64,000 bases of DNA from Gammaproteobacteria bacterium (GTDB taxonomy: Bacteria > Pseudomonadota > Gammaproteobacteria > SZUA-152): the NCBI GenBank assembly GCA_021647505.1, contig JAKIUN010000002.1, positions 54,158 to 118,157 of the forward strand. The letters are read 5' to 3'. Shown here one piece after another: positions 28,618 through 58,248 of the stretch (positions are counted from its first letter, which is position 1; each line of letters begins with the position of its first letter). Below the pieces are notes generated by a model. That model saw only the letters and a list, made by a program, of their open reading frames with translations. It searched no databases and was not told where the DNA came from. The position numbers were made by a program, and so were the translations under genes.

Positions 28618-28988
28618 AAAGGAAGCCGGCCTGTAAGCCGGGTTCTGTCGAGAACAGCCATTCATCTGGGCGCCACGTCACCGCGACGCTCGTGCGACCT
28701 ACCCGGGAGCAACGCGGGCCACGCCAATGCTCCCCTATTTGGTCTTGCTCCGGGTGGGGTTTACCCTGCCACCGCTGTTACCAGCGACGCGGTGCGCTCT
28801 TACCACACCTTTTCACCCTTACCTGTGCACCGGTGTGAACACCGGGCCATCGGCGGTCTGTTTTCTGCGGCACTTTCCGTAGGCTCTCGCCTCCCAGGTG
28901 TTACCTGGCACCCTGCCCTTTGGAGCCCGGACTTTCCTCCACATGTCTTGCAGGCAAGACACACAGCGACTGTCCAGCCGACTTCCGC
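28618..28988 (-). ncRNA. rnpB: RNase P RNA (bacterial type A)
   Basis: Reverse complement contains the universal RNase P RNA blocks GGAGGAAAGTCCGGGCTCCA...AGGGCAGGGTGCCAGGTAAC...GGTAAGGGTGAAA.GGTG.GGTAAGAGCGCACC...GGTAAAC.CCACCCGGAGCAAG.CCAAATAGG...ACAGAACCCGGCTTA; the P1 stem pairs GGAAGTCGGCTGG with CAGGCCGGCTTCC; T-run after the 3' end. Confidence 0.85.
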
Positions 28989-29096
28989 GCATAGTAAACG
29001 CCATTCCGGCCCCGAAATGCAAGCCTGTGGCGGTAAAGTGGACCCCGGATTCCAGACAGTAGTTTAAGCTGTCCCCCAGGATCTGAGGAACAGGTA

Positions 29097-29396
29097 ATGA
29101 GCGAGAAGAAGAAACGCAAGGTACACAGTGCAGAGTTCAAGGCGAAAGTGGGTCTTGAAGCCCTCAAAGGCGTGAAGACAATCAACGAGATTGGTCAGGC
29201 GTATGGAGTTCACCCCGTGCAGGTGGGTCAGTGGAAGAAGGCTATTCAGGAGCAGGCGAAGAGTCTGTTTGAGGGTAAGCGAGGCCCCAAGCCTGCTGCC
29301 GAACACCGACAGCCAGAGAAGCTGTTTTGCGAGATTGGCAAGCTGAAGATGGAGCTGGACTGGCTGAAAAAAAAGTCCGGGATCAGCCAGCCATGA
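29097..29396 (+). CDS. IS3-family transposase OrfA (HTH subunit)
   Basis: MSEKKKRKVHSAEFKAKVGLEALKGVKTINEIGQAYGVHPVQVGQWKK... characteristic of IS3 OrfA, including leucine-zipper C-terminus. Confidence 0.8.
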   Translation: MSEKKKRKVHSAEFKAKVGLEALKGVKTINEIGQAYGVHPVQVGQWKKAIQEQAKSLFEGKRGPKPAAEHRQPEKLFCEIGKLKMELDWLKKKSGISQP

Positions 29397-29515
29397 AGCG
29401 CTGGTTGTGGATTGAGCGGGAACATGAGATTCCGGTGGTTCGCCACCAATGCGAGTTAACCGGGGTCAAGCCTTACAATTTATACCTTATCAGAAAGAAG
29501 GGGTCAGGTCTTTGA
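29393..29515 (+). pseudogene. truncated IS3-family OrfB (integrase-core subunit) 5' fragment
   Basis: Only the first ~40 codons of orfB remain (…WIEREHEIPVVRHQCELTGVKPYNLYLIRKK…) before a stop; no DDE domain follows. Confidence 0.5.
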
Positions 29516-29682
29516 CTTGTAATCTCTACTCCGATAATCTCTTAGTTCCTGAGAGTCTCACAAGACACCGACATGACCCGCCCGATCATAAATCAAAGAC
29601 CTGACCCTGCATTTCTTTCGCTACGCTCATAAATTTCCGGCGAATTGGAGGCAAGAGGGAGAGTTCCCGCATTGTGGCTATC

Positions 29683-29725
29683 GGTAGGGTGGGCAGGCTT
29701 TTCATGCCCACGTGAAATATGCGCC
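29683..29725. repeat. half-copy (one hairpin unit, 42/43 identical) of the REP/MITE-like repeat family
   Basis: ggtagggtgggcaggcttttcatgcccacgtgaaatatgcgcc is the reverse complement of the second half of the full elements at 55947-56128 and 60040-60211. Confidence 0.7.
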
Positions 29726-29730
29726 TAGCT

Positions 29731-29797
29731 CAGCGGCAGGAATAAGGGGCGCGTATTTTTGCGAGCGCAAAAATCGTGACGCTTATTCCTGCCGCTG
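29731..29797 (-). terminator. long perfect hairpin (16-bp stem cagcggcaggaataag / cttattcctgccgctg, nested inner palindrome) 3' of the parE-like operon
   Basis: Perfect 16-bp inverted repeat with 35-nt loop itself partly palindromic; sits 10 bp downstream of the toxin stop on the minus strand; no obvious U-tract. Confidence 0.35.
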
Positions 29798-29807
29798 GAG
29801 ATTATAG

Positions 29808-30107
29808 TTATCTTTTTTTCAATTTATCCCTTATCCATGCCGGTTTCTTACGACAATCAAGAACAGCATATATAAGCACTGCGTCTTCCTCTATGTAGTA
29901 GTAAACAGAAAATGGAAATCGTTTTGACAGCAAGCGATGATATTTTCCAAAATGTATGGAGTGAATCCCAGCATTGAGAATCAATGAATCTATATCCGAG
30001 AAAAGAGTGTCCAAAAAATACGTACCGATACCCTCGGATTGTTTTTCATAGAACCAGTAGCCATCGATTAAGTCTTGGCTTGCCGATTTAAGTATTTTTA
30101 TCTTCAC
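29808..30107 (-). CDS. type II toxin, RelE/ParE superfamily
   Basis: 99 aa, low GC; ParE/RelE-like fold pattern; 4-bp overlap with upstream small antitoxin gene. Confidence 0.7.
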   Translation of the reverse strand: MKIKILKSASQDLIDGYWFYEKQSEGIGTYFLDTLFSDIDSLILNAGIHSIHFGKYHRLLSKRFPFSVYYYIEEDAVLIYAVLDCRKKPAWIRDKLKKR

Positions 30108-30322
30108 GAGATGTCATTTCTAATATTATTTTTGGCTTCCTCCCAATCAACAAATTGATCCTCTCCCCTCTTTAAGCGCCCTTCTCTTTCATTAAGAATC
30201 TTCTCATGCCATGGAGGAGATGAGAGGCTATCTGCCTTTTTGCATAAATCATCCCAGATGGATTCCATGGCTTGGAGTTTTTCTTCTACAGACATTGTAT
30301 CTAAAGGTAAAGTAACTGCCAT
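30104..30322 (-). CDS. putative addiction-module antitoxin (TIGR02574-like component)
   Basis: 72 aa; MSVEEKLQAMESIWDDL...PPWHEKILNEREGRLKRGEDQFVDWEEAK matches the 'putative addiction module component' family paired with ParE-like toxins. Confidence 0.65.
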   Translation of the reverse strand: MAVTLPLDTMSVEEKLQAMESIWDDLCKKADSLSSPPWHEKILNEREGRLKRGEDQFVDWEEAKNNIRNDIS

Positions 30323-30358
30323 TGTTTTCTCCTATGTTTTTTGTGCAAGATAACGCTT

Positions 30359-30420
30359 CACATCACCGGCAGCAAAAAGCAGAGCGAGGAACGACCGAGA
30401 TTTTTGCTGCCGGTGATGTG
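30359..30420 (-). terminator. perfect 20-bp inverted repeat (cacatcaccggcagcaaaaa / tttttgctgccggtgatgtg) between the 163-aa gene and the TA operon
   Basis: Perfect stem, 22-nt loop; located 26 bp 3' of the 163-aa gene stop and 37 bp upstream of the antitoxin start, so could be terminator and/or operator. Confidence 0.4.
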
Positions 30421-30445
30421 ATTGTTAGCAATATTTATATAGCCA

Positions 30446-30937
30446 TCAGATCTGAATGATTTCGTCTAGTTCTAATTGCCAACTTTTTAACTTATTCTGC
30501 ATTTCTGTTCGGAGTGTCAGTTCGGCCTCTTGTGCTTCCTTAAATACTTTTTTAACTTCTTCAACATCTAGCTCTTCACCTGTTTTGCCCTTGTAAATAA
30601 TCTCCCCGACCTTTGCACTTAAATTATTTATATTTTCTGCAATACTCTTGCACAGATAATGTTGACACTGTTGAGAAATACCAGCTTTTTCAGTAAAGGA
30701 AACCATAGCGTGCCCTATCATTTGCTGCGGTAATATTTCACCAATACCAACATCCATTTTTACTGTGCTAATTTGGTTAAGAGCCGTCTCCACCTTAGAT
30801 ATTTTCTTTTGAAGAATTTCTATCCTAATATTTTTTAAAGCTACTTCATTTTGTCTACGTGACGCTATCAATGTAGCTAAAAAGCTAACAAACGCTCCAA
30901 TAATAACCCCAAAAAAGCCAATAAGTGCAGTGTCCAT
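30446..30937 (-). CDS. hypothetical membrane-anchored coiled-coil protein (163 aa, low GC)
   Basis: N-terminal TM helix (LIGFFGVIIGAFVSFLATLIA) followed by predicted coiled coil; codon usage distinct from core genes; no recognisable family. Confidence 0.5.
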   Translation of the reverse strand: MDTALIGFFGVIIGAFVSFLATLIASRRQNEVALKNIRIEILQKKISKVETALNQISTVKMDVGIGEILPQQMIGHAMVSFTEKAGISQQCQHYLCKSIAENINNLSAKVGEIIYKGKTGEELDVEEVKKVFKEAQEAELTLRTEMQNKLKSWQLELDEIIQI

Positions 30938-31019
30938 ATTTTTCCTATTGCTAACGCTTATTATACGGCTTTTGCCTCGATATCATCGGTTTTGGCGTGG
31001 GCAATGTTCGCCTGTCGAA

Positions 31020-31115: not shown

Positions 31116-32732
31116 TTACTCCCGCTTCAACGAAGACAGGCGCGCGAAACCCTGGCGCTCGGCCGCCGCCAGTTGGCTCTCGTGGATAGTAAAAACATTA
31201 ATCACGCCATCCGGGTCATCGCAGACCTGGAGATAGTCCTTACCGTCGGTGTCTTCCCAGTACTTGGCCACGTCGACACCGGCCTTCGTTAGAATTTTCG
31301 CCATCTCTACTGCGGGCGTCCCGCTGCCAACAGCACACTGCAGCGAATCCTTGTAACGATAAACATCCACCGGGGGGCTGTCGCCGCAACCCACAGTCCA
31401 GTCAGCCACCACCAGCGATCCCTCCAGGGTTTTCACCTGTCCGATGTGGAGCAGCCTCGCCGTATCACGGACGTACACCGCAAAGAGGAAGGGCCGCTGA
31501 TCCGGGGGATAGAAGCAGGAAATGACGGGCGAGTCGGGTGAGTCACCGACACCCGCCGTAATGTTGCCAAGAATGAGGCCGAGAGGCTCATCCTCAGTAG
31601 CGGTATGTACCGCTGCCACCGCCGTGACAGCATTCAACCCTTCCTCCCCCACTTGCAGCTCGATGGACTGGCGCAAAGGCTCCAGGTAGAGAAACCCAGC
31701 ACCATTGACCGGCGTGAAGTCGGCCTGCGCCTCGCTCAGGGCAATGCCTAGGCCGGGCAACATATCATCGACCAACATCCGTTGCAGGGAAAACACTGGC
31801 AGGTCAAGGGTAGTCTGCTCAGGCGCCAGGCCCTCGGTAAGCTGCTGCCAAAATCCAGCATCCAGTCGTCCGCGAACCGTATCGAAGCTGCCAGCCGCCG
31901 GGATGATCACCACCAGCGACAGGCCGTCTTCGGCCAGCGGCACGGCCACCGCCCGGTAGTCCTCGCCCTCGGCCACCGACAGCTCGCCGCCGATGTGCAG
32001 CATGGGCACCCGGCGCTGTTCCTCGTGCTCGCCAAAGCGGCCCTCGAACAGCTCTATCGCCAGATCATCCGACCAGGCAGTCTGCAAGCGGGTGGTCTGG
32101 GCAAGGATCAGGCGGCTGCGCTCGCCGATTTCCTCCAGCGCCAGGCGGTCATCCAACGCATCCTCGATGGCGCTGCGCGCCGAGATGAAGTCATCGCGGA
32201 AGTCCAGCCCGGCCATCTCGGGACCGAACAACTCGGCCTGAGCCTGGAGATAGTCACGATGGAAACGATAACCTTGCTGGCCCCACAATAAACGCTGGCG
32301 TTCGACAGCGTCGAGATCACCGATTCGCTGTTCCCACAGGCTGAGACCGGCCAGAATCTCGGCCCTGACCGAATCCTCCAGTGACGGCCAACCACCGGCG
32401 GTAGCGATGGCCTGCAGGGTCTCGCCCCTGGCGCCAAGGGTAAGGCCAGCCAGGAGCTGCTGCACATCGAAGGGTGCAGTGAGGGTATTTCCCTCACCCG
32501 CACGAAAACGGAAATCGTCGAAGGCAAAGGCCAGATGCACCGCTGCCGGGTCGCTGGCGGCAGCGGCCACCAATGCCTCGGGCGGGGTACGCCGGTCATC
32601 GCCCGGGTAGGATTCAATGGAGACCCTGTCGTCATCGATATCGACCGGCGTGGTGGCCTCCTCGGCACAGGCGGTGAGTAGCATGGCAGCCGTAAGAAGC
32701 CACACGGGTAGCGCTTTTCGTAAGCTCAACAT
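31116..32732 (-). CDS. serpin-family lipoprotein with ~100-aa C-terminal extension
   Basis: Lipobox (LLTAC) after signal peptide; serpin N-terminal block (N.L.APF.V..LL.GL.LGARGETL..I); reactive-centre-loop hinge (EEGLNAVTAVAAVHTA); C-terminal serpin motif (DQRPFLFAVYVRDTARLLHIGQV). ATG at 32732 chosen over the upstream TTG. Confidence 0.6.
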   Translation of the reverse strand: MLSLRKALPVWLLTAAMLLTACAEEATTPVDIDDDRVSIESYPGDDRRTPPEALVAAAASDPAAVHLAFAFDDFRFRAGEGNTLTAPFDVQQLLAGLTLGARGETLQAIATAGGWPSLEDSVRAEILAGLSLWEQRIGDLDAVERQRLLWGQQGYRFHRDYLQAQAELFGPEMAGLDFRDDFISARSAIEDALDDRLALEEIGERSRLILAQTTRLQTAWSDDLAIELFEGRFGEHEEQRRVPMLHIGGELSVAEGEDYRAVAVPLAEDGLSLVVIIPAAGSFDTVRGRLDAGFWQQLTEGLAPEQTTLDLPVFSLQRMLVDDMLPGLGIALSEAQADFTPVNGAGFLYLEPLRQSIELQVGEEGLNAVTAVAAVHTATEDEPLGLILGNITAGVGDSPDSPVISCFYPPDQRPFLFAVYVRDTARLLHIGQVKTLEGSLVVADWTVGCGDSPPVDVYRYKDSLQCAVGSGTPAVEMAKILTKAGVDVAKYWEDTDGKDYLQVCDDPDGVINVFTIHESQLAAAERQGFARLSSLKRE

Positions 32733-33114
32733 CCCTTTAATTCCTTTCAAGATCAACAATACTCAACAACCACCGGCTAAAGCTGGTGGGTTAGTTTTAC
32801 GGACTGAAAGTCATAATACGGGTTTAATCCGGCCCGGCAATGGCCATCAAAACACCGTGTAGGATGCCTGTGCCAACCGTAGATGCATTAAGCGAGCCTG
32901 CAAACCACATTGGTCGAGAACGATACCCCCTCACAATGACCAGCACGCAATCTCACACGAACGATGCGGTTCACTACCGCTCATCAGCATCCTACACGAA
33001 TGACCCAAGTGCCTTTCCATAGATAATATTCCCAAACCGACTCATGTGTGCCTTGCAATACGCTTCCCTCAGGTTTAAAAAGGGATTTAAGCCCTTGCCC
33101 CAAGGAGCACGATT

Positions 33115-34274
33115 ATGACACACCACCTGCGGCGTCTCATCATTATTGCGGTTCTGCTCGCCATCGGCGCCGGGCTGGGTTGGTACTGGTCACAACCAAA
33201 GCCGGTGGTGGTGCGCCTACAAGTGGTAGAACGCGGCAGCGTGCAGTCCAGCGTCGCCAACACCCGCGCCGGCACCGTCAAGGCCTGCCGCCGTTCGCGA
33301 ATCACGCCAGCCATCGGCGGCGTGATCACCAGCCTGCCGGCCAGGGATGGCGCCACGGTGAAAAAAGGTGAGTTGCTGCTGGAGCTGTGGAATCACGACC
33401 TGATTGCCCTGGTGGAACTGGCCAAACGCGAGGCCGAAGCCAACCGCGCCCGCGCCACCGAGGCCTGCGTGGTGGCCGATGTGGCCAAGCGCGAGGCCGA
33501 TCGTATGGTGCGCCTGCGCAAACAGAACATCGCCTCCGAAGAAACCACCGAACGCGCCGTGGGTGAGGCCAAGGCCAAGGCGGCGGCCTGTCAGGCGGCG
33601 AAGACGGCCAACCTGGTCGCCGAAGCACGCATCAAAGTCGCCCGCGAAAACCTCGAACGCACCCTGATGCACGCCCCCTTCGACGGCACCATCGCCGAGG
33701 TCAACGGCGAGCTGGGCGAATTCGTCACGCCTTCGCCGCCCGGCATCGCCACCCTGCCGGTGGTAGATCTCATCGACACCACCTGTCTGACCATTTCCGC
33801 CCCCATCGACGAGGTCGACGCCCCCGCCGTGAAACCGGGTCTGACTGCGCGCCTCAGCCTCGATGCCTTCCCCGGCGAGATCTTCGACGGCCGCGTGCGG
33901 CGCATCGCCCCCTATGTGCTGGAGATCGAGAAACAGGCACGCACCGTGGACATCGAGGCGGACTTCATCAACCCCGCCGACACCGCGCGGCTGCTGCCCG
34001 GCTACAGCGCCGACGTGGAAATCATCCTGCAGACACGCGACAACGTCCTGTATATCCCCACCGAGGCCCTGCTGGAAGGTCAGCGGGTGCTGGTCTACGA
34101 CCCGGATAGCGAAACCCTGCAATCACGCGAAGTGGAAACGGGTCTGTCCAACTGGAAGCTGACGGAGATCAGCTCGGGCCTGGAAGAAGGCGAACAAGTG
34201 GTATTGTCGGTGGATCGCAAGGGTGTGGAGCCCGGCACATTGGCGATACCAGAAAGCACCGCCGGACAATCCAG

Positions 34275-34278
<4 letters not shown>
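33115..34278 (+). CDS. HlyD/MacA-family periplasmic adaptor (membrane fusion protein)
   Basis: N-terminal TM, coiled-coil hairpin, lipoyl and beta-barrel regions typical of MacA/DevB; strong RBS (AAGGAG) 8 nt upstream. Confidence 0.85.
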
Positions 34279-34948
<670 letters not shown>

Positions 34949-34952
<4 letters not shown>

Positions 34953-36157
34953 AAACCATCGATATCGCCCGTTATTCGCTGGGTTCGCTCAACGGCGCAC
35001 GCAGCCGCACAGCGCTGATGCTGCTAGCCATGTCCATCGGCGTGGCCTCGGTGCTGGTGCTCACCTCGCTGGGCGAGGCGGCACGGCGTTACGTCTCGGG
35101 CGAATTCGCCTCACTCGGCACCAATCTGGTAATCGTTCTACCGGGCCGCACGGAAACGGCTGGCGGCGAGCCCTCGATGCTGATTGGCGACACACCGCGC
35201 GCACTAACCCTCGGCGATGCCCAGGCGCTGCTACGCTCATCACTGATACGGCATGTCGCGCCGCTCAATATCGGCTCGGCGCCGGTATCCTACGGTGGAC
35301 TGGAACGCGACATCCCCATCTGGGGCTCCACGGCGGAACTGCTGGAAATACGCCACTGGAAAATGGGACTGGGCCGCTTTCTACCCAAGACCGAGTGGGA
35401 TCGCGCCAGCCCGGTGTGTGTACTGGGACAAAAGGTGCGCAAGGAACTGTTCGGCAACCAGCCGGTACTGGGCGAATGGGTGCGCATTGGCGACCGGCGC
35501 TTCCGCGTCATCGGCATCCTGGAATCGGCCGGTGAATCCCTCGGCGTCGCCGTGGAAGACATGGTCATCGTGCCGGTCGCCTCGATCCAGAGGCTGTTCA
35601 ATACCTCGTCACTGTTCCGTATTCTTGTCGAGGCGCGCTCGCGCGAGGCCATCCCCCGCGTCATCGAACACATCACCCATACCATCCGCGAACGCCATCA
35701 GGGCGAGGAAGATATCACCGTCATCACGCAAGATGCCGTACTGGCCACCTTCGACAATATCCTCCAGGCACTGACCCTTACCGTGGCAGGCATTGCCGCC
35801 ATCAGTCTTGGTGTGGCGGGTATTCTGATCATGAACGTGATGCTGGTGGCGGTGGCACAACGAACCACCGAAATTGGTCTGCTCAAGGCACTGGGCGCAC
35901 CGGAGCAACAAATCGTCAACCTGTTCCTTGCCGAAGCGGCGCTGCTGTCCCTGCTCGGTGCCGGCTTGGGTTTGGTCATCGGTCAGGTTGGCAATGGGCT
36001 GATCGGTTATTTCTATCCAGACCTGCCCATGGGCACGCCCCTGTGGGCCTTCGCCGCCGCCATTGGCGTGGCACTGGGCACCGGCCTGCTGTTTTCGCTG
36101 CTGCCGGCACGGCGTGCGGCACGGCTGGATCCGGTACAGGCACTGGCGCGACGGTGA
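34949..36157 (+). CDS. ABC transporter permease, FtsX/MacB-LolC/E family (permease 1)
   Basis: 4-TM FtsX-like topology with large periplasmic loop; GTG start overlapping the ATPase stop. Confidence 0.85.
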
Positions 36158-36286
36158 TGGTGATGCGCCCTGAAATCCAGACCAGCCACCGGATGACTTG
36201 TCCAGCGCCCGGTGGGCAATGCCCACCCTACAAATCTTGCCTCCACCCCGGTAGGAGCGGGCCATGCCCGCTAAACAGCTCTTTCT

Positions 36287-36368
36287 TGCCACAGAGGCAC
36301 GGAGAACACGGAGAACACAGAAAAATAATTGATTTATTTTTCTCCGGGCCCTCCGTGCCTCCGTGGCA
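36287..36368. repeat. 19-bp inverted repeat (ttgccacagaggcacggag / ctccgtgcctccgtggcaa) with 44-nt AT-rich loop between the two permease genes
   Basis: Near-perfect long-range inverted repeat (one mismatch: cagagg versus cctccg arm) in the 270-bp gap; contains direct repeat cacggagaacacggagaacac. Confidence 0.4.
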
Positions 36369-36427
36369 AACGGTCTTTTATCGTGGGCATGGCCCACTCC
36401 TACGAAATCGTCACAGCGGGAGGCATC

Positions 36428-37627
36428 ATGCTCACCCGTGACCTCGTCCGTCTCTCCTTTTCCTCCATCGTCGCCCACCGCCTGCGCAGCCTGCTCACGG
36501 TGCTGGGCATCAGCGTCGGTATTGGTGCAGTCGTTCTTCTCACCTCCATCGGCGAGGGCATCCACAAGTTCGTGCTCAGTGAATTCACCCAGTTCGGCAC
36601 CACCCTGATCGGCATTAACCCGGGCAAAGCCACCACCTTCGGCACCTCGCTGGGCATCATGGGCACGGTACGACCACTGAGCATCGACGACGCCGAGGCC
36701 CTGCGGCGAGTACCACACACCCGCGCCGTGGTAGCCGCCACCCAGGGTAATGCCGAGGTCAAGGCCGGTGCAAAAACCCGCCGCACCACCGTCTATGGCA
36801 TGGGGGCGGACATGCCCGTCGCCTTTTCCATGAAAGTGCAACTGGGCCAGTTCCTGCCTCACGACGACCCGCGTTCACCACGCGCCTTTGCGGTACTGGG
36901 CAGCAAGCTGAAAACAGAACTGTTCGGCACGGAAAACCCGCTGGGCAAAAAGATCCGTATCGGCGGCGACCGCTACCGGGTCATCGGCGTAATGGAGAGC
37001 AAAGGCCAGGTGCTGGGCATGGATCTGGACGACACAGTTTACATTCCCGCCGCGCGCGCACTGGAGATGTTCAACCGCACCAGCCTGATGGAAGTGGATC
37101 TGCTCTACGAGGAAGGCGCAGACGTGGATGAAGTGGTCGCCAGTATCAAGCGCATCCTTATCAACCGCCACGGCCGCGAAGACTTCACCATCACCACCCA
37201 GCAACAAATGATGGACGTGCTGGGCAACGTCCTGAATGTACTGACCTTCGCCGTCGGTGCCCTGGGCAGCATCTCCCTGCTGGTGGGCGGCATCGGCATC
37301 CTCACCATCATGACCATCGCGGTAAAGGAACGCACCAGTGAAATCGGCTTGCTGCGCGCCCTGGGTGCGGAGCGTGGGCAGATCCTGCTGCTGTTCCTCG
37401 GCGAGGCAGCGGTATTGGCCGCCATCGGCGGTATCGCCGGGCTGATCCTCGGCGTCGGCGGCGCACAGCTGTTGAGCCTCGCCCTGCCCGCCCTACCGGT
37501 GCACACACCCTGGTCTTATGTGCTGGCGGCGGAGGCTGTGGCCATTCTCATCGGCTTTGCCGCCGGTGTACTGCCCGCCCGGCGGGCGGCGGCGATGGAT
37601 CCGGTGGAGGCATTGCGGACAGAGTAA
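36428..37627 (+). CDS. ABC transporter permease, FtsX/MacB-LolC/E family (permease 2)
   Basis: Paralogous to permease 1; start reset to MLTRDLVRLSFSS (the upstream ORF extension is intergenic). Confidence 0.8.
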   Translation: MLTRDLVRLSFSSIVAHRLRSLLTVLGISVGIGAVVLLTSIGEGIHKFVLSEFTQFGTTLIGINPGKATTFGTSLGIMGTVRPLSIDDAEALRRVPHTRAVVAATQGNAEVKAGAKTRRTTVYGMGADMPVAFSMKVQLGQFLPHDDPRSPRAFAVLGSKLKTELFGTENPLGKKIRIGGDRYRVIGVMESKGQVLGMDLDDTVYIPAARALEMFNRTSLMEVDLLYEEGADVDEVVASIKRILINRHGREDFTITTQQQMMDVLGNVLNVLTFAVGALGSISLLVGGIGILTIMTIAVKERTSEIGLLRALGAERGQILLLFLGEAAVLAAIGGIAGLILGVGGAQLLSLALPALPVHTPWSYVLAAEAVAILIGFAAGVLPARRAAAMDPVEALRTE

Positions 37628-37642: not shown

Positions 37643-38482
37643 TTAAATAAACACCTTCAACACATCCGAAAACTCCGGCGTACGCAGATAGCCGTAGGAC
37701 TTGTGGTTGAGGCCACCCCAGTCATTCATCACCAGATCATCCTTGACCCTCACGCCAGCGTAGTTTTTTTCGTAGTCGTCACTCAGGTGGATATCCAGTG
37801 CAACGGGATCGCGGCGGTCGGCAAAATTGGTCCAATTTTTTACGATACTGGGCGTGCGAATAATCGGGCTTTCTTTGAGAATCATGTGTTTGACATGCGG
37901 CAGACCGAGCGGTGAGCCAATGGTCACGAAATGCTCGACCGACAAGGTCGGATCTTCACGGCCCAGTTCACGCAATACGTCATAGGCAATAATGGAGCCC
38001 ATAGAGTGCGCCACCAGCATCAGGCGCTTGTCACGATTTTCGGTAATAACTTGTGTCAGACGGCCGCGTAACGCCTTGCGTATTTCCTCTTCTTTGTAAT
38101 AGCGATATAAGTCCGGCAATTTTTCCTTCAGTACTTTTTCCGCCGTTTTATCCATATCCAGTTTATCTTTCATGAAATCCAGGAAGTCACCTCCCATATC
38201 CAAGACTCGCGAACGTACATAATCTATCCAGCCATCTTTGTAATATTTTAAATCACCGCTTTTGGCCCCACGATAGGCATCCGGTTTGGGGTCAGGGCTT
38301 GGATACATCACATCCGCCCAGTGAACGGATAAAAAATCCAGCGATTCGACTGGCAGACGACTGTTTTTCTTCAGCCCTTCGAGCATCGATTGCTCCCACC
38401 ACGCCGCCAAGGTTTCCTTTTCCGGCTTGTTGGCCAAGCCATGCACACCAATGATCAACTTGCTCGATTTATTTGAACTCAT
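37643..38482 (-). CDS. alpha/beta-hydrolase-fold protein (lipase/esterase-like, GxSxG = AHSMGS), lower-GC
   Basis: LIIGVHGL oxyanion-hole-like N-terminus, nucleophile elbow VAHSMGS, Lys/Glu-rich composition atypical for this genome. Confidence 0.6.
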   Translation of the reverse strand: MSSNKSSKLIIGVHGLANKPEKETLAAWWEQSMLEGLKKNSRLPVESLDFLSVHWADVMYPSPDPKPDAYRGAKSGDLKYYKDGWIDYVRSRVLDMGGDFLDFMKDKLDMDKTAEKVLKEKLPDLYRYYKEEEIRKALRGRLTQVITENRDKRLMLVAHSMGSIIAYDVLRELGREDPTLSVEHFVTIGSPLGLPHVKHMILKESPIIRTPSIVKNWTNFADRRDPVALDIHLSDDYEKNYAGVRVKDDLVMNDWGGLNHKSYGYLRTPEFSDVLKVFI

Positions 38483-38588
38483 TTTCTCTCTCTCCCTTTG
38501 ATTTATTTTGTCGGACGATGCTACCGCTACGACAAATAGGATGCAAAGGATGGGTCGAAAATCAGAGACAAATGGTCATATCACACTT

Positions 38589-38611
38589 TGTGTGTGTGTG
38601 GGGGGGGGGGG
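38589..38611. repeat. simple-sequence tract (GT)5-6 followed by G12 homopolymer in the hydrolase promoter region
   Basis: tgtgtgtgtgtgggggggggggg read directly; located 107-129 bp upstream of the hydrolase start on its template. Confidence 0.9.
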
Positions 38612-38649
38612 AATGCAGATGATAAGGGCCGTGCTATGTCCGGGGGGAG

Positions 38650-39435
38650 TTAAATGGCCGCTGCGACTTCCCGCAGCCGCTGAAGCTGTGATTCCCTACG
38701 CATGACATCCTTCATGGCCCTTTTGAAAAAGGGGCGCAAGGTGGATTTCAGGTGTTTTACCGCCTCACGGGCCGGGATGTTTTTCAGGCAACAGAAGATC
38801 GCCAGTGCATAGGTCACATCAAACTGGGACAGGTAGTTTTCACGTTCGACGGCCGGCCCGGAACAGCTGCCGCAGGATCGAATCCTGGCGGTATTGGCGC
38901 TGTCCGCCATGACCACGCCGAAGCCCATGAACACGGCCAGCAGCTCCGTCACATGAGGCCAGTTTTCTTCGCCGCCGGGCGGGGGCTCGTTGGCCGTGGT
39001 GCCGAGATAGTGGGCCAGGGTATGTGCGAAGTGGGCGATCATGACCTCCGGATCGCGTAGCTGATCCGCACGATAGATGATCGGCAGGGGTTGCGCCGCC
39101 TCCACCGCAATGGGCATCGCTCCCTCCATCGCCCGGACCAGGCCTGCAACCGGCAGGATCCGGAGCGGCAACTCCTCCACGACATCCTCATCCACCAGTT
39201 GACAGGGCCAGTGTTGCATGCTGGCAAAAAACCTGACCCTGTCGAAGATCAATCCGCTCATGCCCTCGGGGCTGGATTCCCGGCCGGGAAAATGTGCGTT
39301 GCTGGGCGTCACCAGGATCGTCTCGTCACGGAAGATCCGTGCATCGAAGTTGCGTAGCGCCCAGGCGAAGCTGTCGAACATCCATTGCACAGTGGCTTCA
39401 TCGAGCAGCTGGGTTGGTTTCAGAAACGGGAACAA
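38650..39435 (-). CDS. hypothetical protein (261 aa)
   Basis: Long ORF with genome-typical GC and codon usage, no recognisable motifs; co-directional and immediately upstream of the hydrolase. Confidence 0.45.
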   Translation of the reverse strand: MFPFLKPTQLLDEATVQWMFDSFAWALRNFDARIFRDETILVTPSNAHFPGRESSPEGMSGLIFDRVRFFASMQHWPCQLVDEDVVEELPLRILPVAGLVRAMEGAMPIAVEAAQPLPIIYRADQLRDPEVMIAHFAHTLAHYLGTTANEPPPGGEENWPHVTELLAVFMGFGVVMADSANTARIRSCGSCSGPAVERENYLSQFDVTYALAIFCCLKNIPAREAVKHLKSTLRPFFKRAMKDVMRRESQLQRLREVAAAI

Positions 39436-41810: not shown

Positions 41811-41859
41811 GCAACTTGTACCTTGTGCTTGTTCCCTTACTTTGTTTTTTTTGGTACTA

Positions 41860-43614
41860 ATGCCAGCAACATCTCGGCCTTTAAAGGAATCTTCTAAAAC
41901 ATCGACTAATTCCAGTTCAAAGGTCACAGAACAGCAGGCTCCCGCGCACTCAGATGCCGTAACGGATCAGAAAAAAGGTTTTCCCTCGACCCTGGACTAC
42001 ATGGGTCTCGGCGCCTGGAATATTTATTTTCTTGCCAAGTTCTTTTTATTCTGGCAGCACTATATCGGCTTTCACCCTTTAGAGAATCTGGCATTCGCCG
42101 CTTTCCTGCTAATGCCCGTCAGATCTGCTACGGGTCGTTTTCTTCGCCAAGTGGTGGCGTTTCCTGCCGGTGTGGCGCTGCTTTACTACGATTCCTGGCT
42201 GCCTCCAGTGGCGCGGGTGCTCAATCAAGCCGACAACATGAAGGGGTTTAGTTCTACCTATCTTCTTGAGCTTGTGGGACGCTTTTTCGATGTACAGGTA
42301 GTAGCGGCACTGATTCTGATTTGGGCTGTCACGCGGATTATTTCCCGGTATTTGCGTATCGGAACGCTGGTTACCGTTACGCTTGCCTCCATGGTGATCT
42401 GGAGTACCCTGAAACAAGAGGATGTTTCCATGCCGTCTGTCTCCGTTACCAGTATCTCTCCGGCTGTTTTTGGCGCGGAGGCTACACCTTCTTCCGCCAA
42501 AAACGGCGATAGCCAAGATTCACTGAATGCAGTGCTGGAAAACTTTTATCACGAGGAAGCGAAGCGAAAAGTGAACTTTATAGCGCCAGCATCGGCTGCC
42601 GCGCCGTTCGATGTATTATTTCTGCACATTTGCTCACTTTCCTGGGATGATCTTGAGTTTACCGGGCTGAGCACGCACCCGCTGTTCGACCGTTTTGATC
42701 TGCTTTTCACCAACTTCAACAGTGCATCCTCCTACAGTGGCCCCGCCATGGTGCACCTGCTGCGAGCCACTTGTGGCCAATCCAGTCACCACGATCTGTA
42801 CCAGACAGCGCCGGGACACTGCTATCTGTTCCAAAATCTTGCCCAAGCCGGCTTTTCACCCCAGGTTGCACTGAATCATGACGGTCATTTTGACGGCTTT
42901 CTTGAGGTAATGCGGGAGCAAGGCAAGCTGAACGCCACACCCCTGTCACTGGATGGGATAGAAATCGCACAGCGATCTTTCGACGACTCGCCGATTCATG
43001 CTGATCTGCAAGTATTGAACCGCTGGCTGGAGCAACGCCAGCAAAGCATGAAGCCCAAGGTTGCCGCCTACTACAATACCATCAGCCTGCATGACGGCAA
43101 CCGCCTGGTCACCGGCCCCGGCAGCAAACTGAGCAGCCTGAAAAGCTATCCCCAGCGGCTGCGGACGTTACTGGATGATCTTGAGGCATTCCTGCGCCAA
43201 GTCGAGGCATCAGGGCGCCAGATGGTGGTAGTGCTGGCTCCGGAACACGGCGCGGCCCTCCGCGGAGACCGGATGCAGATCGCGGGTATGCGCGAGATTC
43301 CCAGCCCGGCCATTACCCGAGTGCCGGCTGCCATCGCAGTGATTGGCCCCAACCTGAAACGCAAGGGTAGGCAGGTACGAAACGATGCTCCGGTAAGCTA
43401 TCTGGCCATCAGCCATGTGATCGAGCAGGTGTTGCAGGAAGATGTCTTCGGTAACAGCAGTTTTGATCCCGCCAGGCTGGTGACGAACCTGCCGCAAACG
43501 GCCTTCGTTGCCGAGAACGAAGGCACGGTGGTGATGCGTTATGGTGACCAATACTACCTGCGCCTCGGAAAAGAAGACTGGAGCAAGTATCCCGTAGCGG
43601 AACTCCGGCCATGA
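41860..43614 (+). CDS. bcsG: cellulose biosynthesis protein BcsG (phosphoethanolamine transferase-like)
   Basis: Strong similarity to E. coli BcsG along full length (GLGAWNIYFLAKFFLFW, FHPLENLAFAAFLLMP, NFYHEEAKRK, FDVLFLHICSLSWDDLE, NFNSASSYSGPAMVHLLRATCGQSSH, YNTISLHDGN, MVVVLAPEHGAALRGDRMQIAGMREIPSPAIT). ATG at 41860 chosen; upstream TTG possible. Confidence 0.85.
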   Translation: MPATSRPLKESSKTSTNSSSKVTEQQAPAHSDAVTDQKKGFPSTLDYMGLGAWNIYFLAKFFLFWQHYIGFHPLENLAFAAFLLMPVRSATGRFLRQVVAFPAGVALLYYDSWLPPVARVLNQADNMKGFSSTYLLELVGRFFDVQVVAALILIWAVTRIISRYLRIGTLVTVTLASMVIWSTLKQEDVSMPSVSVTSISPAVFGAEATPSSAKNGDSQDSLNAVLENFYHEEAKRKVNFIAPASAAAPFDVLFLHICSLSWDDLEFTGLSTHPLFDRFDLLFTNFNSASSYSGPAMVHLLRATCGQSSHHDLYQTAPGHCYLFQNLAQAGFSPQVALNHDGHFDGFLEVMREQGKLNATPLSLDGIEIAQRSFDDSPIHADLQVLNRWLEQRQQSMKPKVAAYYNTISLHDGNRLVTGPGSKLSSLKSYPQRLRTLLDDLEAFLRQVEASGRQMVVVLAPEHGAALRGDRMQIAGMREIPSPAITRVPAAIAVIGPNLKRKGRQVRNDAPVSYLAISHVIEQVLQEDVFGNSSFDPARLVTNLPQTAFVAENEGTVVMRYGDQYYLRLGKEDWSKYPVAELRP

Positions 43615-44540
43615 ATCATGAGAGAGACAACATCCCCGGGAGCGAGCGGCTGCGGGAAGATATTTGTGGCCTGCTGCGCAACACCCAGGGACTAAGCAAC
43701 TACCACGAACTGCGCCACTGCGATGAGATCCAGGAAATACTGCAGCGCTGGCCCTTGTTGGATCTGAAAACAGAGCAGCAAACTCGATCTGCCAATTTGC
43801 CGTCAGCCCATAAACGGCCTGTCAACGTGACCCTGGTCACCGGTGCCGTAAGTGGCGTGGGAACCACGACCGTGGTGGCCAACTTGGCCAGGGCGTTGCA
43901 GCAGCAAGGCAGGAAAGTGATGGTGGCAGATCTTTCTTGCCGCCAAGATCTGTATTTTCACCTGGGCGGGGCGTCTGCAGTACCCGCTAACGATAGCGAT
44001 GCGGGCCATCGTATTTCCTTGCTCTCTGACCCAGAGGATCCTGGTGATGTCCAGGATGTCCCACGGGCAGCATCGCCCTGGTTGGCAGACCAGCTATCAA
44101 CACTCCCGGTCAATGTGATCGACCACTTGTTGATCGATTGCCCATGGCATGCCCAGGTTGCGTTTCAGCAGGCATGCGCGTTGGCCGGACGTATCCTGCT
44201 GGTGACCACCGCCGAGCAGCCCATCACTTTCCATCAGATTGGCCTCGCCCTGGCCCATGTGACTTCAGCGAGCCAGCCGGACACCATCAACACTCACCTG
44301 TTGATCAACCGGTTCAATTTTGCCGTACCGCTGCAACGGGATATCCATACGCTGTTGCACAGCAGGCCCCCCATCGCGCTGGTGCCAGCAGAAATACCCC
44401 ACGAAAGCCGCATTGCCGACAGCCTCGCCCGGCTGCGAGACATTGTGTCTCTCGTTCCTGGTTGCGCGGCGACCCACAGGTTCCACCTCTTGGGAAATTG
44501 GTTGATTGATCAAGCCACACAGCAGGGAAAGACGGTTTAG
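43611..44540 (+). CDS. bcsQ: cellulose synthase operon protein BcsQ (MinD/ParA-family ATPase) with ~65-aa N-terminal BcsR-like extension
   Basis: Deviant Walker A (TLVTGAVSGVGTTTVVANLARAL) and YhjQ-like body; N-terminal 60-70 aa not part of canonical BcsQ, possibly a fused BcsR. Confidence 0.75.
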   Translation: MNHERDNIPGSERLREDICGLLRNTQGLSNYHELRHCDEIQEILQRWPLLDLKTEQQTRSANLPSAHKRPVNVTLVTGAVSGVGTTTVVANLARALQQQGRKVMVADLSCRQDLYFHLGGASAVPANDSDAGHRISLLSDPEDPGDVQDVPRAASPWLADQLSTLPVNVIDHLLIDCPWHAQVAFQQACALAGRILLVTTAEQPITFHQIGLALAHVTSASQPDTINTHLLINRFNFAVPLQRDIHTLLHSRPPIALVPAEIPHESRIADSLARLRDIVSLVPGCAATHRFHLLGNWLIDQATQQGKTV

Positions 44541-47104
44541 TGAAAAATGGCAGCCCTGCTGAAGGAACAGCGATACCGATGAATTCTGACTCAAATCGCC
44601 ATTCCAACACCGTCAGCCACCGGTCACTGTTGTTCCGGATGCCCCGCGGCTTTTTCCGGGAGCGAATCGCACCACTGTTCCCCCATGTGGATTTTCGCAA
44701 CCTCCGGCCCACAGATCTAATCCGCATCCTGCTGCAGGCACTATGGCTGGCAGTGTTTCGGCAAAACCCCCCGTCATTCCGGCCATCTGTGCGTGTCCGC
44801 TGGCTTCGCCAGCGCATGAAACAGGGGGGCAAGCGCCTGATCCGGCTGATACCCGGCGGCTTACACCAAAAACTGTCTTGGACGCACTTTCGTAAACCAT
44901 TAGAGGCTATCGCCGGACATGATCTGCGTTGGAGCCGACCGCTAGGTCTGGCCGCCTACCTGCTAGCGGCCGGCATCCTCGTGATTGCCATCATTACCCC
45001 GTTCAGCTTGCTCAGCCAGCTGGTGTTCATGGTGCTACTGTGGTTGATCGCCCTCTCGATCCAGCGTATTCCCGGAAATCTGGCCACCTTGATACTGGTC
45101 GTACTCTCTGTCATCGCCTCTAGCCGGTATCTCTGGTGGCGCATTAACTATACCCTCAACTGGGATGACCTCATTGACCTGACGTTGGGCCTTGGCCTGC
45201 TGGCCGCCGAGTTGTTTGCCTGGCTGGTGCTGATACTTGGCTATTTTCAGACCGCCCGACCCTTGCAGCGCCGACCGGTGGAACTTCCCGCAAATCCAGC
45301 GCAGTGGCCAACCGTCGACGTATTCATTCCAACCTACAATGAACCACTGGAGGTGGTTAAACCGACGGTATATGCCGCATTGGGCATGGACTGGCCCAAG
45401 GAAAAGCTCAACGTCTATCTGCTGGATGATGGACGGCGACCGGCATTTCGCCAGTTCGCACAGGAAGCAGGTGTCATTTACATGACACGCCCGGACAACA
45501 GTCATGCCAAGGCAGGCAATCTCAACCATGCCCTGGCCAGAAGCAAAGGTAAATTCGTCGCTATTTTTGATTGCGACCATGTCCCCACCCGCTCTTTCCT
45601 ACAGGTGAACATGGGCTGGTTTCTGCGTGATCCCAAACTGGCGTTAATGCAAACACCTCATCATTTCTTCTCTCCAGACCCTTTTGAGCGAAATCTGAAC
45701 AATTTCCGTACCGTGCCCAACGAAAACGCGCTTTTCTACGGACTCGTGCAAGGTGGCAACGACCTGTGGAACGCTACCTTTTTCTGTGGCTCCTGCGCAG
45801 TGCTTCGGCGCAAGCCGTTGGAAGAGATTGGCGGTATTGCCGTAGAAACCGTCACTGAAGATGCACATACCGCCCTGCGTCTGCACCGTCTCGGCTACAA
45901 TTCCGCCTATCTCAAGATCCCCCAGGCAGCCGGGCTGGCAACCGAGAGTTTCGCGGCCCACGTCGGTCAGCGCATCCGCTGGGCGCGCGGCATGGCACAG
46001 ATACTCCGCCTCGACAATCCGCTACTGGGCAAGGGCCTGAGCATATGGCAGCGTCTGTGCTACGGCAACGCGATGCTGCATTTCCTGTCAGGGATACCCC
46101 GTCTGGTCTTTCTCAGTGCGCCACTCGCATTTTTGCTCCTGCATGCCTACATTATCTACGCACCGGCGCTGCTGATACTGCTCTATGTGGCGCCACATCT
46201 CATTCACGCCAGCATCACCAACTCCCGTATCCAGGGAAAATACCGCTACTCTTTCTGGGCCGAGATCTACGAAACCGCCCTCGCCTGGTATATTGCCCGT
46301 CCGACCACCACGGCGCTCATCGCCCCTCACAAGGGCAGCTTCAATGTCACCGCCAAAGGCGGCCTGATCGCCGAAGAACATTTCGACTGGCGTATCTCCA
46401 AGCCATTTCTTGTCCTGATTGTACTGAATCTGCTGGGTATTATCGTAGGACTGGGACGTTTGGTTGGAGGCCCTGACCATGAAGTGGGCACTGTACTTCT
46501 CAACCTTGCCTGGGCCAGTTACAACCTGCTGATTCTGGGGGCCGCCCTTGGCGTGGCCATGGAAGCCCGGCAGGTGCGCCGTGCACATCGTGTCGATTTC
46601 CTTTTGCCAGCGGCACTGCTACTGCCAAACGGTCAGCACCTGCTGGCAGAGGTACAGAACTTCTCGCTTGACGGCATGAGTCTGTCTTGCAAGGAAGACG
46701 GTGATCTGAAAATCGGCGCATCCGTGCAGGTGTCATTACGTCCTGGTCTGCGCAGTTATGCTTTCCCGGCCACCTTGGTGCGCCTTGAAGGCAACTCACT
46801 TGGATTACAGTTCCAGAAATTGACGCCCCAACAGGAAGCAGACCTGGTGAAATGCACCTTTGGGCGGGCGGATATCTGGATGGACTGGGCCGCCAACAGG
46901 CCACATGACCGTCCTCTTCGCAGTCTAAAAGCAGTGATGTTGAAAGGCATGGAGGGCTATCAGCGCCTGTTTCATTGGGCCCTTCCATCCCATGCCCAGC
47001 CTCTGATCAGGCAGACACGCAGCCTGCTTAAGTATTTCTCCACCTATCTGCCGCGCCGTCCAGCGGTTCAGTCCCATCGCGCGACCTTAAGGAAGGCCCC
47101 ATGA
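44540..47104 (+). CDS. bcsA: cellulose synthase catalytic subunit BcsA (UDP-forming), C-terminal PilZ domain
   Basis: GT2 motifs (DDG, DCDH, TED, QRIRWARG) and PilZ (RRAHRV…DGMSLS); start either GTG at 44540 or ATG at 44579. Confidence 0.9.
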   Translation: MKNGSPAEGTAIPMNSDSNRHSNTVSHRSLLFRMPRGFFRERIAPLFPHVDFRNLRPTDLIRILLQALWLAVFRQNPPSFRPSVRVRWLRQRMKQGGKRLIRLIPGGLHQKLSWTHFRKPLEAIAGHDLRWSRPLGLAAYLLAAGILVIAIITPFSLLSQLVFMVLLWLIALSIQRIPGNLATLILVVLSVIASSRYLWWRINYTLNWDDLIDLTLGLGLLAAELFAWLVLILGYFQTARPLQRRPVELPANPAQWPTVDVFIPTYNEPLEVVKPTVYAALGMDWPKEKLNVYLLDDGRRPAFRQFAQEAGVIYMTRPDNSHAKAGNLNHALARSKGKFVAIFDCDHVPTRSFLQVNMGWFLRDPKLALMQTPHHFFSPDPFERNLNNFRTVPNENALFYGLVQGGNDLWNATFFCGSCAVLRRKPLEEIGGIAVETVTEDAHTALRLHRLGYNSAYLKIPQAAGLATESFAAHVGQRIRWARGMAQILRLDNPLLGKGLSIWQRLCYGNAMLHFLSGIPRLVFLSAPLAFLLLHAYIIYAPALLILLYVAPHLIHASITNSRIQGKYRYSFWAEIYETALAWYIARPTTTALIAPHKGSFNVTAKGGLIAEEHFDWRISKPFLVLIVLNLLGIIVGLGRLVGGPDHEVGTVLLNLAWASYNLLILGAALGVAMEARQVRRAHRVDFLLPAALLLPNGQHLLAEVQNFSLDGMSLSCKEDGDLKIGASVQVSLRPGLRSYAFPATLVRLEGNSLGLQFQKLTPQQEADLVKCTFGRADIWMDWAANRPHDRPLRSLKAVMLKGMEGYQRLFHWALPSHAQPLIRQTRSLLKYFSTYLPRRPAVQSHRATLRKAP

Positions 47105-58173: not shown

Positions 58174-58248
58174 GCTCCCTTCGTCTAGTGGTTAGGACAC
58201 TGGCCTCTCACGCCGGTAACAGGGGTTCGAATCCCCTAGGGAGCGCCA
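58174..58248 (+). tRNA. tRNA-Glu (anticodon CUC)
   Basis: Cloverleaf folds perfectly: acceptor stem GCTCCCT/AGGGAGC, anticodon loop CT-CTC-AC, T-arm GGGGTTCGAATCCCC, CCA end; body nearly identical to tRNA-Glu of E. coli except anticodon CTC instead of TTC. Confidence 0.85.

Follow-up and report, generated by a model that had tools for sequence, protein, structure and literature searches.

Serpins are the textbook case of proteins whose function depends on metastable folding. Lipoprotein serpins, latent serpins and serpin fusions have all been described. Latency is a secondary, inactivating transition of a reactive loop of normal length, with strand s1C peeled off, and in tengpin it is controlled by an N-terminal extension. 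Non-inhibitory serpins such as ovalbumin, Hsp47, PEDF and maspin have a five-stranded native state with an exposed loop, and cellulosomal serpins carry dockerins. An earlier note on the DNA studied here called serpins uncommon in Proteobacteria, which holds only in the sense of sparse, as a phylogenetic survey places the Proteobacteria among the phyla containing most bacterial serpins (PMC8233489). Here, we analyzed a stretch of 64,000 nucleotides from a Gammaproteobacteria bacterium of the GTDB lineage SZUA-152 (assembly GCA_021647505.1, contig JAKIUN010000002.1, positions 54,158 to 118,157; the whole stretch is called the window below), which encodes a lipoprotein serpin of 538 residues with an additional C-terminal domain. 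Judging from a structural model, we consider it an evenly balanced proposition that the uncleaved ground state of this protein is relaxed and loop inserted and that the protein is not a suicide inhibitor.

The assignment to the serpin family, made earlier from the letters of the sequence, was confirmed by profile and by fold. Pfam PF00079 (Serpin) matches residues 79 to 433 with an E value of 1e-27 (97.8 bits against a cut-off of 27), covering profile positions 19 to 367 of 370, and a Foldseek search of the predicted fold against PDB returned 411 matches at E values of 0.001 or lower, with target-normalized template modeling (TM) scores to solved serpins of up to 0.84 and a best E value of 5e-23. 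A search of NCBIfam with the serpin protein gave no model matches. By sequence, phmmer found 78 serpins in PDB at E values of 0.01 or lower, and the nearest of them are ordinary serpins at 1e-11 and weaker, indicating that this is a very divergent serpin. The C-terminal serpin motif named in the earlier note is present as RPFLFAVY...HIGQV, in agreement with the signature ..PF.F....G.V. All family statistics given here are based on 29 nonredundant sequences of the same architecture; the existence of intact orthologues in this number means that the architecture of the gene is not due to chance. By alignment and entropy, conservation in the family peaks at CFYPPDQRPFLFAVY...HIGQV, and the equivalent of the breach residue Trp194 is kept in every member.

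In which conformation does this serpin fold? One run of AlphaFold2 (AF2; ColabFold) with a family alignment of 21 sequences gave a full-length model with a predicted local distance difference test score (pLDDT) of 81.7 and a predicted TM score of 0.71. In this model, residues 354 to 362 form strand s5A, which is followed by a two-residue turn and a further strand at residues 365 to 378 (P15 to P2) with pLDDT values of 86 to 96, and residues 383 to 403 are disordered. The modeled s5A-turn-s4A hairpin is the topology of a relaxed serpin. The expected serpin fold was obtained, and the reactive-center loop was modeled as an inserted strand, not as an exposed loop; its P1 residue is T379 by register. 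Among the top 50 Foldseek matches in PDB are cleaved forms (Serpin 42Da, PAI-1, CBG, vaspin, and antichymotrypsin), the latent forms of PAI-1, conserpin and tengpin, and loop-inserted ovalbumin. Antithrombin is represented in this top 50 by latent L chains only and by none of the native I chains of the same crystals, which do occur among the sequence matches from phmmer; chain L of 1AZX is latent and chain I is native antithrombin (PMC11226102). As far as the model goes, this contrast between L and I chains works as an internal control. AlphaFold is reported to push serpins toward the native conformation, even for variants that are experimentally latent or relaxed, so that a loop-inserted prediction runs counter to the usual bias of the method (PMC11226102).

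The register of the loop was set by alignment to SERPINB1 and by mapping through a hidden Markov model of the family to alpha1-antitrypsin (sequence identical to 2QUG). It assigns E363 to P17, G365 to P15, and T379 to P1, and it puts C406 at the P4' position where strand s1C begins; in the translation, the hinge string EEGLNAVTAVAAVHTA occupies residues 363 to 378. Between the P1 equivalent and this cysteine lie 26 to 40 residues, compared to 3 in alpha1-antitrypsin, and the short P' side of canonical serpins is replaced in the family by a loop with 23 to 37 more residues than alpha1-antitrypsin has from P1 to the start of s1C. Most of the difference is a linker of 22 to 36 residues (median, 27), found in all 29 members and shortest in the window protein, which runs from the E-P of the loop to the invariant cysteine ahead of s1C. 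The linker is hypervariable, with an entropy of 2.1 bits, only 27% identity even among near relatives and 10% to distant members, and pLDDT values below 50 in the AF2 model. In cleaved serpins, P1 and P1' end up about 70 Å apart, a distance that about 21 fully extended residues would be needed to span, as estimated from textbook values. The window protein has 26 residues between T379 and C406, with additional slack from P3 to P1. Hence, full insertion of the loop is possible with s1C left in place, whereas latent PAI-1 has to peel s1C off. The linker also keeps an x-x-[LVF]-[FLI] motif directly after the conserved E-P, and most members have a short stretch of alternating hydrophobic residues (for example, GVIVTAP, LIITTP, or SVIITIP) about 8 to 15 residues before the linker cysteine. 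This stretch, weak in the window protein (NITAGV), may form an extra edge strand.

The loop itself shows the opposite pattern. In the family alignment, the mean entropy of P8 to P4' is 0.78 bits, compared to 1.29 bits for the serpin core and 1.53 bits for s5A, so that a stretch that is normally hypervariable in serpins ranks among the best-conserved stretches here. P2 is Ala and P3' is Glu in all members, and P4' is Pro in 27 of them. Even-numbered loop positions, which would face the core if the loop were inserted, have an entropy of 0.75 bits, versus 1.26 bits for odd-numbered positions.

Four cysteines, C406, C449, C466, and C504, are each present in 29 of 29 members. The earlier note had placed all four in the C-terminal extension; the extension holds three of them, and C406 lies inside the serpin body, just before s1C. 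C449 follows the last serpin strand by 13 residues. Stand-alone homologues of the C-terminal domain, as well as repeats 2 and 3 of the tandem-repeat protein P0002 described below, keep only the internal pair equivalent to C466 and C504, which leaves C406 and C449 as a putative second pair. A disulfide between C406 and C449 would pin s1C in place and tether the additional domain to the pole of the molecule at which proteases normally dock.

Taken together, these features suggest the following explanation. The uncleaved protein would adopt the relaxed state with a six-stranded sheet A, not the metastable five-stranded state of inhibitory serpins. Residues 365 to 378 (P15 to P2) would form strand s4A, the conserved A-T-x-x-E-P would make a turn at the bottom pole, and the hypervariable linker would return up the molecule to s1C, which would be held by the putative Cys406-Cys449 disulfide to the tail leading into the C-terminal domain. 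A trap that is sprung beforehand would rule out a suicide-substrate mechanism. The protein might instead function in the envelope as a hyperstable scaffold or as a binding protein, in which the return linker would be the only fast-evolving exposed element and the C-terminal module would supply a putative binding function.

How intact is the inhibitory machinery? The hinge had been described as intact looking, and the string is indeed there, with Gly at P15 in every member of the alignment. The inhibitory consensus for P17 to P9 is ExGTEAAAA (PMC8233489), from which the family departs at P17, P14, P13, P11, and P9. P17 is Glu in only 16 members and is not kept in the other 13; P14 is Leu, Ile, or Val in all 29 and Thr or Ser in none. 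P13 is Ser or Asn, and P11 and P9 are variable, with Lys, Arg, Glu, Gln, and Asn among their residues; in divergent members, P13 to P9 include Arg, Gln, Asn, Glu, or Lys. P12 (Ala/Ser) and P10 (Thr/Ala) remain small. The shutter has been rewritten as well. Ser53 and Ser56 are highly conserved in serpins and important in their conformational transitions (PMC3268027); the equivalent of Ser53 is Ala (25 members) or Ser (4 members), that of Ser56 is Asp (26 members), and Asn186 and His334 are both replaced by Gln (the latter in 27 members). Each replacement is conserved inside the family, which lacks the canonical shutter, and the position of Lys290, the partner of the P17 Glu in the Glu342-Lys290 pair, is variable.

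These substitutions bear directly on the possibility that the protein is a canonical inhibitor after all, that is, a lipid-anchored suicide inhibitor with A378 or T379 as its P1 residue. Its target would be a protease resembling elastase or subtilisin and would come from the cell itself or from competitors. The long P'-side linker would then be tolerated, and the disulfide-tethered C-terminal domain would act as an exosite near the docking pole. We regard such an inhibitor as unlikely but as a serious contender. It would have to operate with a P14 that is never Thr or Ser, a P17 Glu that is not conserved, a replaced shutter, and, in divergent members, charged or bulky hinge residues. Thr at P1 followed by acidic P1' to P3' residues and then Pro would make an unusual protease site, at least 22 invariably present linker residues would be left without a role, no protease gene is a conserved neighbor, and the AF2 model is relaxed in spite of the AlphaFold bias (PMC11226102). 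Several observations nevertheless fit an inhibitor, and some of them weigh against a loop that is inserted from the start. The full serpin fold is present, with the breach Trp194 retained; an invariant Gly at P15 and small residues at P12 and P10 would also suit an inhibitory hinge, and the AVTA at P12 to P9 of the window protein is not disqualifying. From P17 to T379, the P side has exactly the canonical 17 residues, so that a cut at A378-T379 or T379-E380 would give a canonical P side of 16 to 17 residues. The strong conservation of the loop could equally reflect a single conserved target protease, and miropin provides the precedent of an inhibitory lipoprotein serpin that is surface exposed and anchored in the outer membrane (bioRxiv 10.1101/2025.09.05.674453). 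Furthermore, the conformational state is derived from one AF2 run on 21 sequences, and the positive function proposed above is vague, with no candidate emerging from the search for partners.

A third possibility is a latency switch, in which a native, inhibitory five-stranded form would undergo spontaneous loop insertion in the manner of PAI-1 or tengpin, with the linker lowering the barrier and the AF2 model showing the end state. The AF2 and Foldseek results fit this possibility just as they fit constitutive insertion, and the best structural matches include the latent forms of tengpin and PAI-1. The family also has a conserved N-terminal extension ahead of helix A, and the element that controls latency in tengpin is likewise an N-terminal extension. 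This extension holds the conserved motif V.IE.Y..DG.R, gave no match in a Pfam search at E values up to 10, and is modeled with pLDDT values of 71 to 90 from residue 31 on, including a short strand at residues 36 to 38. However, the sequence contains no feature that would separate a switch from constitutive insertion, and a Cys406-Cys449 staple on s1C would block the classical route of s1C extraction. The absence of both the P17 Glu-Lys290 pair and the shutter residues speaks against continued selection for the native state. Overall, we consider a latency switch improbable.

Insertion of the loop in the ground state, the explanation favored here, leaves a function to be supplied by other parts of the protein. 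The C-terminal extension of about 100 residues, first seen in the earlier note, proved to be a discrete module both in a separate AF2 model and in a profile search. Modeled alone, it reached a pLDDT of 90.5 with a beta-alpha-beta-beta-alpha-(beta) layout, and no relative of it was found in Pfam, NCBIfam, or PDB. A profile search of 1.84 billion cluster representatives matched 1,466 proteins at E values of 1e-3 or lower and 686 at 1e-10 or lower, so that the domain family comprises at least 1,466 clusters. Most of its members are 100 to 250 residues long, carry a signal peptide or lipobox, and contain the domain in one to four copies; their names, where given, are "hypothetical protein" or "Lipoprotein," as in Cellvibrio fontiphilus and Sinimarinibacterium. 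Two larger architectures were observed: P0002 (711 residues; locus L010, 8001 to 10136) carries three tandem copies, and P0056 (1,614 residues) has 19 stretches matched by the domain profile. The gene neighborhoods of the stand-alone homologues contain unrelated housekeeping genes and no functional clue, and the attempt to derive a function for the domain from this context was dropped.

At its other end, the protein carries the N terminus of a lipoprotein. The open reading frame (ORF) spans 31116 to 32759 on the minus strand; translation from the ATG at 32732 gives the 538 residues, with the stop codon at 31116 to 31118. The signal sequence reads MLSLRK-ALPVWLLTAAMLLTA-C, and the lipobox reported in the earlier note is L-T-A-C, which fits [LVI][ASTVI][GAS]C. 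All 29 members have the lipobox Cys, and none has Asp at residue +2. On this sequence evidence the product is a Sec/Lgt/Lol-type lipoprotein, destined for the outer membrane by the rules of Escherichia coli since residue +2 is not Asp. With a GC content of 62.3% and a third-position GC content (GC3) of 72%, the gene resembles the adjoining dcw cell division genes and is therefore not a recent import; recent horizontal transfer was ruled out on these grounds. An anti-phage defense role was also rejected, as PADLOC gave no match for the serpin or its small neighbors.

The serpin family is small, rare, and confined to uncultured Gammaproteobacteria in the data searched. Among 5.8 billion proteins, 28 matches were found, of which 24 form a tight family, alike in length and in carrying the C-terminal extension; among 185,579 species genomes, 12 loci were found, all in metagenome-assembled genomes, labeled Chromatiales, Ectothiorhodospiraceae, Porticoccus, or unclassified Gammaproteobacteria. 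A profile search based on the C-terminal domain added ten more divergent serpin fusions. In six relatives (L008, L010, L013, L014, L019, and L022), the serpin is about 70 to 77% identical to that of the window, and the adjoining pump proteins are mostly 87 to 98% identical. By this sequence comparison, the serpin is a fast-evolving gene, changing much faster than its neighbors within the exporter clade. A conserved protease or partner gene was also sought next to the serpin, and none was found across eight look-ups of serpin loci.

Table 1. Features of the serpin gene and of the divergent exporter operon in the window.
Feature	Residues and sequence	Coordinates	Strand	Basis or remark
Whole gene, lipoprotein serpin with C-terminal domain	538 residues	31116..32732	-	ORF translation; Pfam Serpin; orthologue P0001 98% identical
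Signal peptide and lipobox	1-22, MLSLRKALPVWLLTAAMLLTAC	32667..32732	-	Translation; Cys22 putative lipidated residue; residue +2 Ala
Family-specific N-terminal extension	23-78	32499..32666	-	Family alignment; ahead of helix A
Serpin domain	79-436	31425..32498	-	Pfam match to residues 79-433; Foldseek versus PDB (E 5e-23, TM[target] 0.84)
Reactive-center-loop equivalent, P17-P4'	363-383, EEGLNAVTAVAAVHTATEDEP	31584..31646	-	Predicted strand s4A, inserted in sheet A
Hypervariable return linker	384-405, LGLILGNITAGVGDSPDSPVIS	31518..31583	-	Absent from canonical serpins
Invariant Cys406, P4' equivalent, start of strand s1C	406	31515..31517	-	29/29 members; putative disulfide partner Cys449
C-terminal domain	449-538	31119..31388	-	Starts at Cys449; beta-alpha-beta-beta-alpha-(beta); internal Cys466/Cys504 pair
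Divergent intergenic region	382 bp	32733..33114	.	Promoter-like consensus sites on both strands
MacAB-like (type VII ABC) exporter operon		33115..37627	+	Pfam and NCBIfam matches; synteny survey
MFP		33115-34278	+	Pfam/NCBIfam
ABC ATPase		34275-34952	+	Pfam/NCBIfam
First permease, MacB_PCD/FtsX		34949-36157	+	Pfam/NCBIfam
Second permease, MacB_PCD/FtsX		~36428-37627	+	Pfam/NCBIfam; start from orthologues

The serpin is divergent from a MacAB-like exporter, and the earlier note took the shared promoter region of 380 bp as a sign of coordinated expression, for instance for export or protection. The arrangement was described correctly: the spacer measures 382 bp, and Pfam and NCBIfam bear out the operon as a membrane fusion protein (MFP, of HlyD type in the earlier note), an ATP-binding cassette (ABC) ATPase, and two MacB_PCD/FtsX permeases (Table 1). 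The mechanical ORF of the second permease (36329 to 37627, plus strand) has a TTG start and 432 residues; orthologues are called at 399 residues, which implies a start near 36428, about 270 bp beyond the end of the first permease gene. To what extent do serpin and pump belong together? We compared the neighbors in the window with all 28 fetched loci by tblastn. The pump adjoins the serpin in 10 loci, which form one close, genus-level clade with identities of 69% or more for the serpin and of 82 to 100% for the pump proteins. In 9 loci with serpins of 41 to 64% identity, the pump is absent and the neighbors are unrelated, including Dtd/metallophosphoesterase, radical SAM/GH57, and histidine kinase/MsrB. 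Within the spacer, only about 95 bp next to the pump gene are conserved, and the window has about 190 extra bases (alignment A3).

That serpin and exporter form one functional unit, through co-regulation, export, or protection, would agree with the shared divergent region, with its promoter-like sites on both strands, and with the recurrence of the arrangement in 10 fetched loci. We consider it very improbable. Since adjacency is limited to one genus-level clade, coupling is unsupported, and the conserved part of the spacer lies on the pump side only; the claim of coordinated expression or export with the pump finds no support on either count, and a coupling of serpin and pump was rejected. 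Lipoproteins leave the inner membrane by Sec/Lgt/Lol, so that a MacB pump is unnecessary for export of the serpin. Lol-type lipoprotein extraction by the neighboring permeases was rejected as well, as LolC/E models score them at 35 to 53 bits, far below the cut-off of 362. Judged from the sequence comparisons, the adjacency is best read as shared ancestry, the pump being a neighbor by descent.

Apart from the serpin, the 95 bp upstream of the MFP gene (33020 to 33114; A3 columns 30 to 95) are nearly invariant in 7 genomes; an inverted repeat within them, AAGGG-N7-CCCTT, is a candidate for an operator or a leader hairpin of the pump. Downstream of the pump, two minus-strand genes (37643 to 39435) travel with it in relatives at 86 to 89% identity; they encode a 279-residue alpha/beta-hydrolase-like protein (weak DUF900 match; GC content, 48.7%) and a 261-residue protein without a family match.

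On its other side, the serpin gene is separated from the RNase P RNA gene by an islet of low GC content (28986 to 31000), 36 to 46% compared to about 62% in the surroundings. The islet contains an IS3-type transposase helix-turn-helix fragment (29097 to 29396; PF01527), a ParE-like toxin (29808 to 30107; weak PF05016 match) with an Unstab_antitox antitoxin (30104 to 30322; E value of 1.7e-15), and a membrane-anchored protein of 163 residues with no assigned function (30446 to 30937; GC content, 35.8%). In the relatives L008 and L010, different genes occupy this place. The RNase P RNA gene is of bacterial class A and full length (28618 to 28985, minus strand; 330 bits), directly upstream of mraZ and the dcw cluster. 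Farther away, the window contains a tRNA gene (58174 to 58245) and a complete cellulose synthesis operon (41842 to 53419, plus strand) encoding BcsG, a BcsQ-like ATPase, BcsA with PilZ, BcsB, a GH8 endoglucanase, and BcsC. In L010, panC lies close to the orthologues of the two genes downstream of the pump, leaving no space for a bcs operon, so that the operon appears to have been gained in the window or lost in L010.

We put forward tentatively, as somewhat short of an even chance, that this family is the first natural serpin lineage with a relaxed, six-stranded, uncleaved ground state, reached through a return linker of about 25 residues inserted after the reactive loop and a disulfide staple on s1C, and that it has turned a metastable inhibitor into a hyperstable envelope scaffold. 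Our literature search found no natural constitutively loop-inserted serpin, which is absence of evidence only; nor did the searched literature contain the combination seen here, in which a conserved loop and a long return linker that no member lacks go together with replaced shutter residues, a putative Cys staple, and the C-terminal module. If true, the family would be a natural counterexample bearing on the long-standing problem of metastable serpin folding, both its reason and its mechanism, and a ready-made system for the study of the serpin folding trap and latency. The traits that set the family apart are readable and few in number: an extended loop, hydrophobic residues at P14, an altered shutter, and a putative disulfide staple. 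It would also give the first structural context for a widespread unnamed periplasmic or lipoprotein domain. Should the protein prove to be a canonical inhibitor, the result would be a modest addition to the lipoprotein serpins, namely a new clade that carries an accessory domain. Two further points concern annotation: a Pfam Serpin match together with a Gly-containing hinge does not equal a protease inhibitor, and a domain family of at least 1,466 clusters, nameless in Pfam and NCBIfam, has been exposed.

How does the family compare with known serpins? Latent PAI-1, antithrombin, tengpin, and conserpin resemble the model of the window protein in having an uncleaved chain, the loop as s4A, and a six-stranded sheet A. 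In contrast to them, the window family has 23 to 37 extra residues that would let s1C stay put and an invariant Cys pair positioned for a staple on s1C, and its hinge and shutter signatures of the native state are eroded. An antithrombin variant (PDB 4EB1; L chain at Foldseek rank 16) is relaxed and hyperstable through an insertion that fills sheet A without cleavage (PMC11226102). That variant is human and pathological, with its extra strand built from the inserted residues and its loop still native, whereas in the window family, a natural and conserved one, the loop is predicted to be the extra strand and the insertion to be the return linker.

Miropin of Tannerella forsythia (Foldseek rank 42) is likewise a bacterial lipoprotein serpin anchored in the outer membrane (bioRxiv 10.1101/2025.09.05.674453), but it belongs to the Bacteroidota, is a demonstrated inhibitor, and has neither the extra C-terminal domain nor the long return linker. 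Ovalbumin, Hsp47, PEDF, and maspin share with the window family a serpin fold with a hinge off the inhibitory consensus; the loss of inhibition proposed here would have the opposite cause, a loop that is already inserted. Added modules occur in other serpin fusions as well, for example in P0027 (Serpin plus PF03781), but the module in the window is an unnamed disulfide-containing beta-alpha-beta-beta-alpha-beta domain that otherwise occurs in stand-alone small lipoproteins and secreted proteins. Finally, the neighboring operon resembles tripartite exporters of the MacAB type (type VII ABC, MacB/FtsX) in combining an MFP, an ABC ATPase, and MacB_PCD/FtsX permeases and differs from them in encoding ATPase and permeases as separate polypeptides, with two distinct permeases.

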